Both the position numbers and the translations under genes were made by a program. Below are positions 17,246 to 60,885 of a stretch of 64,000 nucleotides of DNA, one piece after another. Below the pieces are notes generated by a model. It was not told where the DNA came from. It saw only the letters and a program-made list of their open reading frames with translations, and did no database searches. How positions within the stretch are numbered: position 1 is the first letter of the stretch; the number at the start of each line of letters is the position of its first letter. The DNA is taken from NCBI GenBank assembly GCA_965287045.1, contig OZ336871.1, positions 94,240,001 to 94,304,000 on the forward strand. The letters run 5' to 3'. This DNA is from Carcharhinus amblyrhynchos. Taxonomy: Eukaryota.

Positions 17246-18253
17246 TTTGCGGCAGTAGAGATGACTCGCTATTGGCCATTGTCAAAAGAACATAAGAACT
17301 AAGAGCAGGAGTAGGTCATCTGGCCCCTCGAGCCAGATTTCATGTCGCTGGGAAACCCATGGTAGGGGTGTGCCATTGGCGGAACCGGAAGATCATGCTG
17401 ATATGAAACAGCTGGAAAGTTACAGCCATAGATCCTTACAGCACTTTGACCCATTGTTTCTATGCTAGTCATTATGCACCTGTCCATTTTAATCCCATTT
17501 TTCAGCACTTGATGCGTAGCCTTGTTATATGCAGCAATGCAACACAATTTAGAGTCATAGAGGTTTACAGCATGGACACAGGCCCTTTGGCCTAACTTGT
17601 CCATGCCACCTTTTTTTTTAAACCCCTAAGCTAATCCCAATTTCCAGCATTTTGCCCATATCCCTCTGTACCCATTGTACCCATGTAACTATCTAAATGC
17701 TTTTTAAAAGACAAAATTTTATGTGCCTCTACTATTACCTCTAGCAGCTTGTTCTAGACACTCACCACCCTCTGTGTGAAAAAACTGCCCCTCTGGACAC
17801 TTCTGTTTCTCTCCCATCTCACCTTAAACCTATGCCCTCTAGTTTTAGACTTCCCTACCTTTAGGAAAAGATATTGACTATTTAGCTGATCTATGCCCCT
17901 CATTATTTTATAGACCTCTATAAGGTCACCCCTCAGCCTCCTGCGCTCCACAGACAAAAGTCCCAGTCTATCCAGCCTCTCCTTATAACTCAATCCATCA
18001 AGACCCAGTAGGATCCTAGTAAATCTTTTCTGCATTCTTTCTAGTTTAATAATATCCTTTCTATAATAGGGTGACCAGAATTGCACACAGCATTCCAAGT
18101 GTGGCCTTACCAATGTCTTGTACAACTTCAGCAAGGCATCCCAACTCCTGTATTCAATGTTCTGATGTGGGAATGCCGGCGTTGGACTGGCGTAAACACA
18201 GTAAAAAGTCTGACAACACCAGGTTTTAGTCCAACCGATTTATTTGATAATAC

Positions 18254-18291
18254 TCACAAGCTTTCGAGGGGACTGCCTCTTCGTCAGGTGA
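18254..18291 (-). ncRNA. Minimal type-I hammerhead ribozyme motif (intact core)
   Basis: TCAC-CTGACGA-A-GAGG-cagtcc-CCTC-GAAA-GCT-T-GTGA: stem I TCAC/GTGA, stem II GAGG/CCTC, palindromic AGCT in place of stem III. Confidence 0.8.
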
Positions 18292-18307
18292 ATGGAGAGT
18301 TCTCCAT

Positions 18308-18345
18308 TCACCTGACAAAGAGGCAGTCCCCTCGAAAGCTTGTGA
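18308..18345 (+). ncRNA. Hammerhead motif with core mutation (CTGACAA)
   Basis: Mirror of 18254-18291, but G8 changed to A in the CUGANGA box. Confidence 0.65.
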
Positions 18346-18432
18346 GTATTATCAAATAAATCGGTTGGATTAAAACCTGGTGTTGTCAGACTTTTTCAGT
18401 GTTCTGACCAGTGAAACCAAGCATGCCGAATG

Positions 18433-18549
18433 CCTTCTTCACACTGTCCACTTGTGACTCCACTTTCAAGGAGCTATGAAATTGTATCCCTTCTTCACCA
18501 CTCTGTCCACTTGTGACTCCACTTTCAAGGAGCTATGAAATTGTATCCC
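18433..18549. repeat. Tandem duplication of about 58 bp within CR1
   Basis: CCTTCTTCA...CTGTCCACTTGTGACTCCACTTTCAAGGAGCTATGAAATTGTATCC present twice. Confidence 0.9.
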
Positions 18550-19191
18550 TAGACCTCTTTGTACTGTAACTCTCCCCAAAGCCCTACCATTAACTGAGTA
18601 AGTCCTGCCCTGCATCAGTCTACCAAAATGCATCACCTCGCATTTGTCTGAAGTAAAATTGGTGACACCAATCTTGGTATCATCTGCAAACTTACTAGCC
18701 ATGCCTCCTATATTCTCATCCAAATCATTAATATAAATTACAAATAATAGTGGACCCTGCACTGATCCTGAGGCGCAGCGCTGGTCATAGGCCTCCAGTT
18801 TGAAAAACAATTCTCTACGACCACCCTCTGGCTTCTGTCAGGAAGCCATTTTTGTATGCATTTAGATACCTCACCCTGGATCCCGTGAGATTTAACCTTA
18901 TGCAACAACCTATCATGCGGCACCTTGTCAAAGGCCTTGCTAAAGTCCATGTAGACAATATCAACTGCACTGCCCTCATCTACCTTCTCGGTTACCCCTT
19001 CAAAAAACTCAAGTCAAATTTGTGAGACATGATTTTCCACTCACAAAGCCATGCTGACTGTCCGTAATCAGTACTTGATATATGAGAAGTTAAAACCTGG
19101 TAATACAGTTCATAGAATAGAGCAAGATATTGAAATTTTATAAAATTCAATATGTTGTAATGGCATTACAATGTTAGTAATGTTACAATGT

Positions 19192-32612: not shown

Positions 32613-33222
32613 GCATACCCATAAGATGGGAAACATAGCAGCGCTCTTCCCTGTTCATTCCTGTATCAGTCAATGCAGCTTCCAGCCGTTTGAAGCAATA
32701 TATTTAAATGCTGATCCTATGACCAAAAAATAGGGTGTTTCTCTTGCTGAATTTCCTGGGTAGTAAAGCCCCATTTGTCTGAAGATGGGACAGTAGCAAG
32801 ATAAAGATAAACCTTATTCAATGTTTGAGTTAATAGTCTCAACGTTACCCTCTCAAGATGGGTGGGAGAAAGTAAGAGGGGCGGGGATGAATAAATGTGA
32901 GGAATGCATTTTTATGGTGGCATATTGGGCCAATCAAATAACCTCCCATGGAGAGATTCAACCCTGTAAATATCTGGGTCCAAGAGGAAAGTGGGAGTGA
33001 AAATCTCGTTTGTAAATTTCAAGCAAAGAATGCAGGATTTATAATTATTGGTAATTCAGCAATTGGTAATTGTTTTCCAATACCATATACCATGGGTGGA
33101 AATCTACCAAAATGCAACAAAGCATTATAATGGTAGGAAAACTGGAGCGATTAGCACTAGGTTAGTTTCTCATGTATGTTCTGCACCACAATCATCCTAC
33201 ACTCAGTCATTTTTTGGAGCAG

Positions 33223-33502
33223 TGATGTGGAGTTGCCAGCATTGGACTGGAGTGGGCACAGTAATTAGTCTCACAACACCAGGTTAAAGTCCAACAGGTT
33301 TATTTAGTAGCATGCGCTTTTGGAGCGCTGCTCCTTCATCGGTGATTGCCTGATGATGAAGCACTCACTGAAGGAGCACTGATGAAGCCACTCACCTGAT
33401 GAAGGAGCAGTGCTTCGAAAGCTCATGCTACCAAATAAACCCGTTGGACTTTAACCTGGTGATGTGAGACAACTTACTGTCCAACCCGGCAACTCCACAT
33501 CA
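33223..33502. mobile_element. Fold-back Penelope-like element end (second subfamily) with TSD
   Basis: Termini TGATGTGGAGTTGCC / GGCAACTCCACATCA; imperfect arms; TSD TTTTTTGGAGCAG (33210-33222) / TTTTTTGGAGGAG (33503-33515). Confidence 0.85.
33393..33427 (+). ncRNA. Minimal type-I hammerhead ribozyme motif
   Basis: CAC-CTGATGA-A-GGAGC-agt-GCTTC-GAAA-GCT-C-ATG; core intact, stem I weakened (ATG for GTG). Confidence 0.7.
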
Positions 33503-36500
33503 TTTTTTGGAGGAGAGTTTCGTGCCAATGCTGGGGGGGTGTGGAGGGTGTGGGGGGGTGGGTGCATCAGGACGTAAACACACTAGTAATCCCAGCTTCA
33601 GAGTGCTCAGGCGCCGCTTTGCAAGGGTGTCCCGATTTCAGTGCACTGGGAGAAGCCCGCCCACCTCCAATGGGCATTGGGATCCTCCCTTATCAGTGAC
33701 ATGTTCCCCCAAACTCTTCCTCTTGCAGGCTACAAGCATCAGGGCTCCGATGGGTCCCTCTGCCTGACCCCAACATAATCCCCATTCATGACCCGAACAT
33801 GATCCATCCCTGCATGATCTCTTATTGCAGCCTCCATTCAGGCCCCAACTCCCTGGCACTTCCCCGGCACACAGGCAGTGCTCAGCTGGTACTGCTGGAG
33901 TGTCTGGTGTGCATTGTCATGTGGGCTGTGTCCAATGGACACCACCTCACCAAGCTCTGGACCACCATGGGGCTTCAGTGGCCTCTCAGCTCTTGATGTG
34001 GCCACTGCATCAGGTCCCTGATAGTGGAGGCCAGCAGTAATCCCTCCCCCACCCCCTCATCTTGTGTCATGCCTGAAGGCCAGAGGATCCAGTGCGCTGG
34101 GAGTCAAATGGGCTATGCATATTTAAATGCTATTTTAAATCCCTTTCTGGGTGCAATTTGTGCCATTAAGAAGGGGCAGGGAGGACTGCCAACTGTTTGG
34201 CACTATGTGCAATATCTATTTTTAGGCCCGCTTGCTACTGTCCGGGATCAGCGCAATTCGCATAGGTGCGAGGAGATCGGAAAATCGGCCACCATATTAT
34301 TCTTATTTCTTTTCATTTTAATCTACATGCCAAAATCAGAAAATTTCAGCATACTTACAATTTACCTGTATTAGATTTACAAAGAGGTAAAATGTATTCA
34401 GAGTACCACCCTTTCAATTCTAGGACCGAATTTTGAAACACATTTGGATTAATAGATCCACCCTTCACAACTGGGTAAGTGAAATGTATTTGAACAACTC
34501 TCTGTGGATTTCCTTATGTCTTGTAACTTGGAATATTGACACTAAATTGACAGTCTTGCTATGGGTTGTATGCTACAGGAACAGCAGCAGCTAAAGTAAT
34601 GGAAATGTCATAATGGCGTTGTAGAAATGTTCTCTAAGATCGATGCAGCAGTCTATTGTCATGTCAGAGTGACAGACAGTTATTCTGTATCTGACTGTGT
34701 TCTATTACTGGGAGTGCTTATTAGGAAATTGGGTGCATCTTGCTCTCTGCAATCTTCCATCTTTTTGATTTTAATGAATTCCCAGCATGTGCTCCTACAG
34801 GTGCACAAAGCTTTGTGCTAGGAATGCACAACGTGCAAATATTTACTCCATAATGTTTTATTCAGTAGTTTAATTTCCAACGTTACGCTACCTGAAATTT
34901 ATCAAGTATTCCAATTTTCAGCCTTTTTGAATTCAGGTCCAAAAATCAGGTGAAAGCAGCTGTAAGGAAATGTGTGCTTTGGAGGTCAGTAATAAAACAG
35001 TTCATGTAAGCCAAATAACTTCAAGTGTAATCACGTTTAAACAGAAATACGATGATGTAAGGAACAAAAGTGAACCCAGGATTTAAGCCATGGATTAAAT
35101 AAAAACATAATGGGAGTTGTTTTGTTGTATGGCAAGTGTAAAATTAACAATTTTGTATGAGGTGCCCATTCTATATTTTCATCCAATTTCCATTTTCATT
35201 GAAGTTATATATTTATTAATGCATCAGAAAATAACGGAGAGTCATTTTAGGCAACTGTGTCCCAAATGTTAGTGGTGTGGTGTAATTTCAGAATGAAAAT
35301 ACTTAAAATACACTTATGTTCTTATGTTCTTATATTCACCAAGTACAGTGTGAAAATTCGACATGCATTGTTAATCATGCCCTTTGTGTTATCAAAACTT
35401 CAGCTGGTTGCAGGTGATTGAAGGAACGCACAACATCACTGCTACCAATCAGCACTGAGAGAAGCTCAAACTCTCCCTTGTCCAAATAGGTAAAGCAACT
35501 TTATATGTCAATGCATAGCTATAACACATTGCCACCACAATCAGTCTTAACCTTAATTTTGGAATTTTTCTTTTGAGAGAGCCATTATTGAACTTTCGGC
35601 TAAAATATCTCATTGATTCCTCGGTCTATTAGGCAATCTTTCCATCAGCAAAGTTTAGATGCTGTTGAATAACTCATCTTGTATAATGATAACAACATGT
35701 AGGTTTAAATGTTTTGTCTTGCTGAGGACCAGACCAAAAACTCCAATGTATGTTATACCATTAGCCTGGACCCCAAAATTTGCACTTGATTTTGGCATTA
35801 GGGTGAGCACAAGGTATTTTGCTCCAGTATGTTTCAATTGACCCATTACAAAGCTGTTATGAAAACAAACTTTATTTAAGAACACAGACTATAGTATAAT
35901 TCTTAACAACTAGCAATCCCTATAATGACAGAAAGGGCCACCCCTCTCTACAGGTTCCAAAACAGCAACTAACCTTGAATTCTCTGTGTAAACCTGGCTC
36001 CATTAAGTCATATCACCTTACTTGTCAATCAACCAGATTACATCCTACTCTGCAAAACCCCAGGGGGTTCACTAAGAACACAAAACAGCATTAGTCCAGA
36101 TTAAAATACACATTCTAGCAAATAGAAGCTATTATGCTGCAGCAGCAACAACACAGAGTTGCTGGATGTAGATAAACTGGCATAAAAAGAAACTGCTAAA
36201 ACAGATCCTGCACAAGAAACAGACAACCACATTTCTTAAAGCTCAGTATTGTCTCATTCTTGCCACCAATACTACCTAACTGGCTGAGATCTGTATTGGC
36301 AACATTTTCTGTTTAATTTCAGATTTCCAGCATTGACAGTATTTTGCCTTTATATTAAGGTGCTAGAGTTTGTATTGGATGACCAAGGGATCTGGAATTT
36401 TTGGATGGTGAGTTTTCACTTCCTGCCATACTGACTCTTTGCTGACTGAGAGTGCCATGCAGATATTTCATGCTCAAATGAACATTAATTTACTCCAGGT

Positions 36501-59952: not shown

Positions 59953-60234
59953 TAGCTGAAATGTAGAGGCCAAGTTTGAGGATGTATCTGATTTTGATAT
60001 TGGTTTGAGCGAAGTGTTGTGATGACTAAATTGATTGACAATGACAGAGTTATGAATTAATGGGAGAAGCTAAGCTTGCAGCAAAGAAAAAGGTTTCAGT
60101 TTCATTATAAAATACAAGCAATTGCTACCTGAGCTGCCAGAAGAAAGCAGCGTCTGTCTGTCTGTCTCTCTCTCCAAAGTAAAAAGTCTGACAACACCAG
60201 GTTTTAGTCCAACCGATTTATTTGATAGTAAACG

Positions 60235-60268
60235 CACAAGCTTTCGGGGTTAGTCCCTTCGTCAGGTG
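60235..60268 (-). ncRNA. Minimal type-I hammerhead ribozyme motif (antisense arm)
   Basis: Reverse complement identical to 60559-60592. Confidence 0.78.
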
Positions 60269-60558
60269 AATGGAGAGTTCTGGCCTCAGACAGAGCATAT
60301 AAAGCACAGACTGTTTAGAGATTACTGATTAGAATGCGAATCCTTACACTGACTTGCCTGGGTTTGCAAAACCTCACTTACTGTACTGTCTGGAGACAAT
60401 ACACATCTCTGTAACCTGTGATCAGTGCTCCTTCCACTCACATTGTCAGCCACTTCAGGTCTTGAACAGCAGGTTAGGTGTAAGGATTCGCATTCTAATC
60501 AGTAATCTCTAAACAGTCTGTGCTTTATATGCTCTGTCTGAGGCCAGAACCCTCCATT

Positions 60559-60592
60559 CACCTGACGAAGGGACTAACCCCGAAAGCTTGTG
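60559..60592 (+). ncRNA. Minimal type-I hammerhead ribozyme motif
   Basis: CAC-CTGACGA-A-GGG-actaac-CCC-GAAA-GCT-T-GTG, followed by AATAAA at 60605. Confidence 0.8.
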
Positions 60593-60885
60593 CGTTTACT
60601 ATCAAATAAATCGGTTGGACTAAAACCTGGTGTTGTCAGACTTTTTACTGTGTTTACGCCAGTCCAACGCCGGCATACCCACATCATCTCTCTCCAAAGG
60701 CATTCTGAAAGCTCTAAACTTGGTAACCCAAGTCAAAGTAAGTAAATCTGTGTTTTGCTAACTAATTTTAAAGAGAGGTTTAAGTCTATAGGAGAAATAT
60801 TGTTTGATTGGAACTTACAGTTGGATTGTTTAAGTATTGTTCAATTCATTTGTTATAGTTAAATTGCATTGTTAAATAACTTTGC

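Follow-up and report, generated by a model that had tools for sequence, protein, structure and literature searches.

The window analysed here, a stretch of 64,000 nucleotides from Carcharhinus amblyrhynchos, contains a near-perfect palindrome of 194 bp, composed of two 96-bp arms and a 2-nt loop (Table 1). In the assembly sequence the arms are complementary at 94 of 96 positions. The mismatches are 18229/18370 and 18282/18317, the latter corresponding to a change of CTGACGA into CTGACAA at a CpG of the plus-strand copy. An unpaired tail lies on the left side only, and the insert is framed by a TSD with one mismatch. These features, together with the tail of about 37 nt and the intact ribozyme core of the minus arm, had been described in a sequence-only reading of the locus and are confirmed. 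The predicted RNA fold of the palindrome (-179.3 kcal/mol, z -29.9) is far beyond chance: none of 200 shuffles folded as low.

Table 1. Features of the palindrome locus and a related insertion in the same window.
Feature	Position	Strand	Basis or remark
Host LINE remnant, downstream ORF2 part (CR1-like by its motifs)	17754..18152	-	
Left TSD, 13 bp	18153..18165	.	natural-copy comparison; last 3 nt also match the element end
Tail, 37 nt, final bases ahead of the next tandem unit's ATG; on one arm only	18166..18202	-	directly followed by the ORF start in full-length copies
Tailed arm, 3' end (pseudo-LTR) of a Penelope-like element	18203..18298	-	sense on the minus strand
Minimal type I hammerhead, intact core	18252..18293	-	descriptor scan, fold; predicted cut between 18258 and 18257
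Centre, 2-nt loop and 3 nt (18301-18303) common to both arms	18299..18303	.	this junction recurs at 173 loci
Untailed arm, inverted second copy of the 3' end	18301..18396	+	starts about 40 nt further in
Second hammerhead copy, predicted inactive	18306..18347	+	core G8 to A at 18317 (CpG-type)
Right TSD, 13 bp, one mismatch	18395..18407	.	first 2 nt also in the arm
Host LINE remnant, RT region, broken frames	18408..19013	-	weak Pfam match to RVT_1, E 0.004, below cut-off
Sister insertion (L049), untailed arm -39 to -208, tailed arm to -336, 13-bp TSD	60167..60699	.	

The insert interrupts a decayed LINE. Copies of the host repeat found elsewhere are continuous at the insertion site, with a gap of 0 or 1 in 10 of 11 comparisons; the eleventh, with a gap of 242, is the palindrome locus itself. 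The name CR1 is tentative: it is taken from CR1-clade ORF2 motifs in the reading frames of the repeat and not from a database match. Just to the right of the insertion (window about 18433-18555), the LINE also shows a short tandem duplication of ~60 bp, whose joints skip 55-62 nt.

Each arm corresponds to the 3' end of a ~3-kb, young Penelope-like element (PLE), and a stand-alone ribozyme element is ruled out. All 40 scored genome matches of the tailed arm are 100% identical over 135 nt, and the matching copies run past the arm into a 3' UTR and then an ORF with RT and GIY-YIG motifs. The unit measures 3,024 bp and is repeated head to tail, in partial tandems which form pseudo-LTRs. The following unit's ATG is directly preceded by the tail and, at a distance of 90-130 nt, by the hammerhead. 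The exact 26-mer adjoining the hammerhead occurs 18,326 times in the genome, which holds about ten thousand young insertions as well as intact ORFs.

The 893-aa ORF is open in 11 of 20 stretches around the ORF start, in linked copies outside the window. It consists of an RT followed by a C-terminal GIY-YIG endonuclease (RVT_1, E 5e-10; GIY-YIG, E 4e-5, above cut-off), and many of its homologues carry PF01541. A structure database search with the endonuclease domain returned a single, insignificant match (E 0.9). The best named homologues are shark proteins (82-91% identity), followed by turtles (~45%). Compared by eye with the description in PMC8557442, the ORF contains a DKG motif and a CCHH zinc finger with two cysteines between GIY and YIG. 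The linker between RT and endonuclease reads CX4CxxC, within the CX2-5CxxC pattern of Neptune/Nematis. By the motif definitions of that article the element can thus be classed as a Neptune/Nematis-type PLE, the linker fitting both clades alike.

The palindrome is thus almost certainly a PLE insertion. The layout resembles the complex insertions of endonuclease-containing PLEs (PMC3846280; PMC8557442): a head-to-head inverted, 5'-truncated copy, a tail of 30-40 nt at one end, a palindrome at the junction, a TSD, partial tandems and a hammerhead in the pseudo-LTR. It differs from them in the 96-bp arms of the shark palindrome and in the position of the tail, just before the ATG, whereas theirs is inside the ORF. 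The TSD is also longer in the shark family than in the rotifer examples (12-14 bp vs 8-10 bp) and the shark copy number is very high.

Inverted pseudo-LTRs, one of which bears a tail, and palindromes where the inverted copies join were reported in PMC3846280, where self-priming was proposed. In PMC8557442 the inverted layout with a one-sided tail is given as general for PLEs and its mechanism is called undefined; both articles call the making of tandem and inverted PLE structures unresolved. The palindrome layout is therefore already described for this class. Neither the link of the arms to an autonomous Penelope-like retrotransposon nor the earlier publication of such a layout was noticed in the sequence-only reading. 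The locus is an ordinary dead retrotransposon fragment, this copy being likely a dead by-product, and the modest mechanistic value of the case comes from the other copies. The combined explanation, a severely 5'-truncated head-to-head insertion of this young retrotransposon for which both target strands primed cDNA on one RNA, is probable.

The hammerhead of the minus arm has the CUGANGA and GAAA core of the minimal type I motif, the bulge after position 9, the G10.1-C11.1 pair, the palindromic 15.2-16.2 and helices I and II. Helix I has 6 bp and helix II 4 bp, the bulged base is an A, and a palindromic AGCU replaces helix III. The minimal type I hammerheads of metazoan PLEs likewise have a bulge between 9 and 10.1, G10.1-C11.1, a palindromic 15.2-16.2 and a short helix I (PMC4209133). 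Compared with the same source, helix II is shorter (7-8 bp in Schistosoma) and the two motifs of the palindrome are only 12 nt apart; opposite-strand hammerhead pairs 100-700 bp apart were already noted there. The plus-arm copy departs from the minimal type I motif by its G8A change. G8 is essential, as judged from a G8C mutant, in the hammerhead of PAc, the Poseidon element of Anolis carolinensis (PMC11167929).

The descriptor found 304 instances of the hammerhead motif in all examined loci, with the bulged A in 302 and G10.1-C11.1 in 285; the second pair of helix II is A-U in 199 and G-C in 101. The variant present in the palindrome occurs 1,698 times. In copies which are otherwise 97-99% identical, variation is greatest in helix II and its loop, with the pairing preserved; the predicted cut is preceded by U in 238 of the 304 instances and by A in 66. 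An Rfam scan of the window, taken down to E 1, had no hammerhead among its matches; as Rfam has no model of minimal motifs, this speaks neither for nor against the motif. The isolated hammerhead and tail fold no better than shuffles (z -0.8 and -1.5, respectively), and minimal PLE hammerheads are known to need help from a partner or a protein (PMC4209133, PMC11167929).

One hammerhead is on each strand, so the two cannot be part of a single transcript. On each strand, the sense motif is 3' of its complement and is buried in the -179 kcal/mol hairpin. Because it would be transcribed after its complement, its cleavage within a palindrome transcript is unlikely, judging from the predicted fold. 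The hammerheads are passengers of the pseudo-LTR. As for truncations at the predicted cut (-94), their count is affected by an indel polymorphism which ends alignments there and by samples which required longer arms.

Insertions with both flanks were mapped onto one natural unit (L192), positions being counted from the ATG. They were collected in tail-selected, UTR-, RT- and ORF-start-selected, centre-selected and position-ordered sets. The position-ordered sample was taken from the first 100 listed matches of the 26-mer; 15 of its short loci were cut by an edge, and some of them stayed incomplete. Insertions touching the locus edge, with less than 82-84% identity or with duplicate flanks were dropped.

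Head-to-head insertions account for 177 of the 234 mapped. One end is tailed and the other untailed in 156 of the 177; none has two tails and none has zero. In the remaining 21 one end lies elsewhere, and several of these keep a TSD and have a short arm whose start lies between -59 and -99. Without the tail-selected set, the one-tail class amounts to 130 of 145 head-to-head insertions. The position-ordered sample comprises 63 insertions, of which 45 are head to head (37 of them with one tail) and 18 have one orientation only (9 tailed, 9 untailed). The family thus shows the inverted 5'-truncated copy, the tail of 30-40 nt at one end and the TSD by which PLE insertions are recognised. An older insertion of a sister family, ~80% identical and with a 13-bp TSD, is present at 33207-33512 of the window. 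It has tail sequence at both ends (33223-33502), the right tail lacking 12 nt, which makes it an exception to the one-tail rule; its centre contains several short repeats of the 5' part of the hammerhead.

The outer ends are narrowly distributed. In 128 cleanly mapped copies the tailed end has a median of +1 and the untailed end a median of -38 (IQR -40 to -37, range -53 to -30), the median tail being 38 nt. Between target and element the overlap is 1.80 nt at the tailed and 1.80 nt at the untailed outer end (0.36 expected by chance), and the TSD has 12-14 bp in 84 of 104 insertions. The positions of the tail end and the inner end do not co-vary (rho -0.13, p 0.16), so there is no rigid ruler between the two start sites.

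These values bear on the idea, put forward from the sequence, that a reproducible fold-back endpoint marks a fixed priming or template-switch site. Tabulated over the copies, as had been proposed, the outer ends of the short arms do cluster, and a preferred priming site is supported, in line with the in vitro starts of another PLE at the two edges of its tail (PMC11167929). The endpoint is the 3' end of the element, and the part of the claim that made it a fold-back or template-switch point falls. The centre, where the sequence actually folds back, is not fixed: it varies over the whole element, from -30 to -2,900. The sister insertion at 60180 was said to belong to the same family and to stop at an identical position. 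It is 90% identical to the palindrome over 135 nt, with a different helix-II variant in its hammerhead, and the short arms end at -42 in the palindrome and at -39 in the 60180 copy when the full-length TSD is counted (positions from the ATG, with an uncertainty of 2 nt each where sequence is shared), so that the stops are close rather than identical.

The observed anatomy, in which one arm ends at the ATG (+1) and the other ~38 nt earlier within a frame of 12-14-bp TSDs, can be explained if each nicked target strand primed its own cDNA from a single RNA, the two starting at different sites, and the products were then joined. On balance, we consider this reading probable. The element protein, perhaps as a dimer, would cut the two target strands 12-13 nt apart, which would generate two 3' ends. 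One of these would serve as primer for reverse transcription at the tail's outer edge and the other at its inner edge, the outer cDNA displacing the inner one from the RNA. Synthesis of both cDNAs would end early, often at neighbouring positions, and the free 3' ends would join via 1-4 nt of complementarity (3 nt in the palindrome studied here), followed by fill-in. This two-primer reading fits the geometry of the arms, because each of them reads antisense inward from its flank, as expected for cDNA primed by a target strand. It also fits the one-tail rule, the variants common to the two arms, the fact that either arm may be the longer, the existence of arms made of the tail alone, and the biochemistry of PAc. 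The correlated inner ends, the equal target-element overlap at the two outer ends and the TSD length of mostly 12-14 bp speak for it as well.

LINE-1 twin priming is a related process, in which both target strands prime on one RNA and an inverted 5' part results, with a junction of short overlap. There, the second primer anneals internally at a site that varies, and the two parts share no overlap. In the shark PLE, by contrast, the second site hardly varies and overlap between the two copies is usual.

The PAc protein cuts and extends both target strands, is predicted to be dimeric, and starts reverse transcription in vitro at two sites which bound the tail (PMC11167929); in these respects it resembles the shark family. 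The hammerhead lies 85-92 nt upstream of the start site in PAc and ~94 nt in the shark family, and PAc cDNA runs through the uncut hammerhead (PMC11167929). PAc is a member of the Penelope/Poseidon clade, whereas the shark ORF has the Neptune/Nematis CX4CxxC linker. The main text of PMC11167929 does not address inverted insertions; the word "inverted" appears there once, about an oligo. Some of these data speak against the two-primer reading. In vitro, the start sites of PAc do not differ between top strand and bottom strand, so there is no coupling that would force one tail per insertion. In addition, PAc initiation needs no homology (PMC11167929), compared with the overlap of 1.8 nt in the shark copies. 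The two-tailed copy at 33223-33502 and the 18 of 63 insertions with one orientation also count against two primers.

A second explanation, which we consider unlikely but which has to be weighed in detail, is snap-back self-priming: a cDNA, or an antisense RNA (PMC3846280), folds back on a short complementarity and copies itself, the tail reflecting a stop or cut ~38 nt short, and later deletions reshape the centre. It is the published interpretation for rotifer PLEs (PMC3846280). Consistent with it, the two arms have lineage and private variants in common. Their divergence is 1.7% within one insertion, vs 5.8% between insertions. Over 21 polymorphic columns and 136 pairs, there are 50 discordant cells between arms vs 690 expected, and in 89 pairs 24 private variants are on both arms and 108 on one. 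It counts against the two-primer reading that shared variants and near-equal arms would follow just as well from snap-back synthesis or from later gene conversion.

The inner ends, which spread from -30 to about -2,900, correlate within pairs in the position-ordered sample (rho 0.74, n=33) and in the tail-selected set (rho 0.78). They are at most 20 nt apart in 11 of the 33 pairs, vs 2.5 expected. The correlation is absent in two sets selected for arm length (rho 0.19, n=23; rho -0.39, n=16), which also counts against two primers. Among 96 centres, 59 overlap by 1-11 nt, 11 are flush and 26 have extra bases. Ends that coincide, overlapping centres and recurrent centres at small natural hairpins, such as that of the palindrome with its 173 loci, are compatible with snap-back. 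In a snap-back product, however, the copy cannot exceed its template at the far end, yet the untailed arm is the deeper one, and holds the unique loop, in 48 of the 96 insertions (the tailed arm in 44, with 4 ties). The near-equal pairs of the position-ordered sample lean to the untailed arm in 7 of 9 cases. Moreover, in three copies (L052, L305, L276) the tailed arm is the tail alone and has nothing in common with the other arm, untailed ends also occur alone (9 of the 18 one-orientation copies), and the in vitro work shows true start sites at the two tail edges (PMC11167929).

A further point against two primers is that palindrome centres may undergo asymmetric deletion once inserted, which could erase the signal of direction; snap-back followed by such central deletions could reproduce much of what is seen. 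Arm lengths form a continuum up to full-length elements. One palindromic insertion (L111, C4:94990000-94999999) has arms of ~2.66 kb, is almost spacerless and survives in the assembly, and three complex insertions (L042, L149, L195) show at least three switches of direction between one pair of outer ends.

The arms could also have been primed on two separate RNA molecules from one source locus. This would account for either arm being the longer and for overlapping arms without strand displacement, and the sharing of lineage would follow if a single source locus were active per cell. It leaves unexplained the absence of insertions with two tails or none (0 of 177) and the correlated inner ends, and we regard it as improbable.

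It is more improbable still that the ~230-bp palindrome is a non-autonomous element, MITE- or retrozyme-like, which spreads as a unit. The numbers appear to favor it at first sight: near-spacerless head-to-head centres (within 24 nt) in this region of the element are found at about 800 loci (804 forward and 817 reverse matches), and the exact junction of the palindrome, which uses 3 nt common to both arms, recurs genome-wide as given in Table 1. Yet among the 53 loci listed on contig C1 there are many different junctions, and only 6 have that of the palindrome. In 26 loci with the same centre, the tailed arm supplies the loop in 16 and the untailed arm in 10, and the outer ends vary as in other copies. 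Both loop configurations and the varied outer ends point to repeated independent formation rather than the spread of one mini-element, and the continuous range of arm lengths likewise argues against such a unit. A second hotspot of centres at -336 was not trusted, since the search query itself contained that junction.

Two known classes were rejected. A MITE or DNA transposon would have fixed TIRs, a uniform length and a short fixed TSD, in contrast with the unequal ends, variable lengths and 12-14-bp TSD of these insertions. Non-LTR retrozymes (bioRxiv 10.64898/2026.07.22.740005) similarly have a PLE-derived type I hammerhead, but they form head-to-tail arrays with a hammerhead per unit. Assignment to them needs at least two consecutive tandem units with complete hammerheads, whereas the palindrome is head to head with one motif per strand, one of them mutated.

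An assembly or library fold-back artefact is extremely improbable: perfect-looking hairpins are a known type of chimera and no sequencing record bridges the whole locus (contigs at 90% and 99%), but the arms differ at two positions, one of them a CpG transition, the TSD frames the insert, the host repeat is continuous elsewhere, and the one-sided tail with its TSD recurs across contigs. Run X1 gives a weak hint: its short-read contigs include two records without differences, one of 35 nt across the centre and one of 47 nt across the left junction, both below the 31-letter bar applied, and X1 itself may come from the assembled sample.

The two-primer reading can be extended to a more tentative proposal, for which the case is at present slightly less than even: inverted Penelope insertions would be the normal product of coordinated double priming, in which a dimer makes a cut with a fixed stagger of 12-13 nt and begins two overlapping cDNAs on one RNA, at either edge of the tail, giving exactly one tail in every inverted insertion. 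If this is true, the in vitro result of 2024 would be joined to the genomic inverted repeats, the self-priming model would be replaced, and the C. amblyrhynchos genome would be the data set to prove the model. The one-tail rule, the narrow TSD length, the arms from the same template and the correlated stops give sharp predictions for the in vitro system. No statement of a two-primer model for PLEs was found in the literature searched; the Penelope papers of 2004-2006 were outside its scope and priority is uncertain.

With its about 800 near-spacerless palindromes, this vertebrate genome also lends itself to questions on palindrome decay and on whether double-stranded RNA arises from such sequences. 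Cruciform formation and processing by Dicer or ADAR, which had been suggested for the palindrome, are plausible on general grounds. Several centres on contig C1 contain short inserts copied from nearby arm sequence, which look like repeated priming before the final join. In the element itself, a TATA-like motif is found in both directions (window 60290-60310 and L031:420-445), and an initiator-like motif follows ~30 nt downstream of it at helix I of the hammerhead. At -140, near where many copies end truncated, there is a pyrimidine tract followed by AG; from their sequence, these motifs could possibly be a pseudo-LTR promoter or a splice acceptor.
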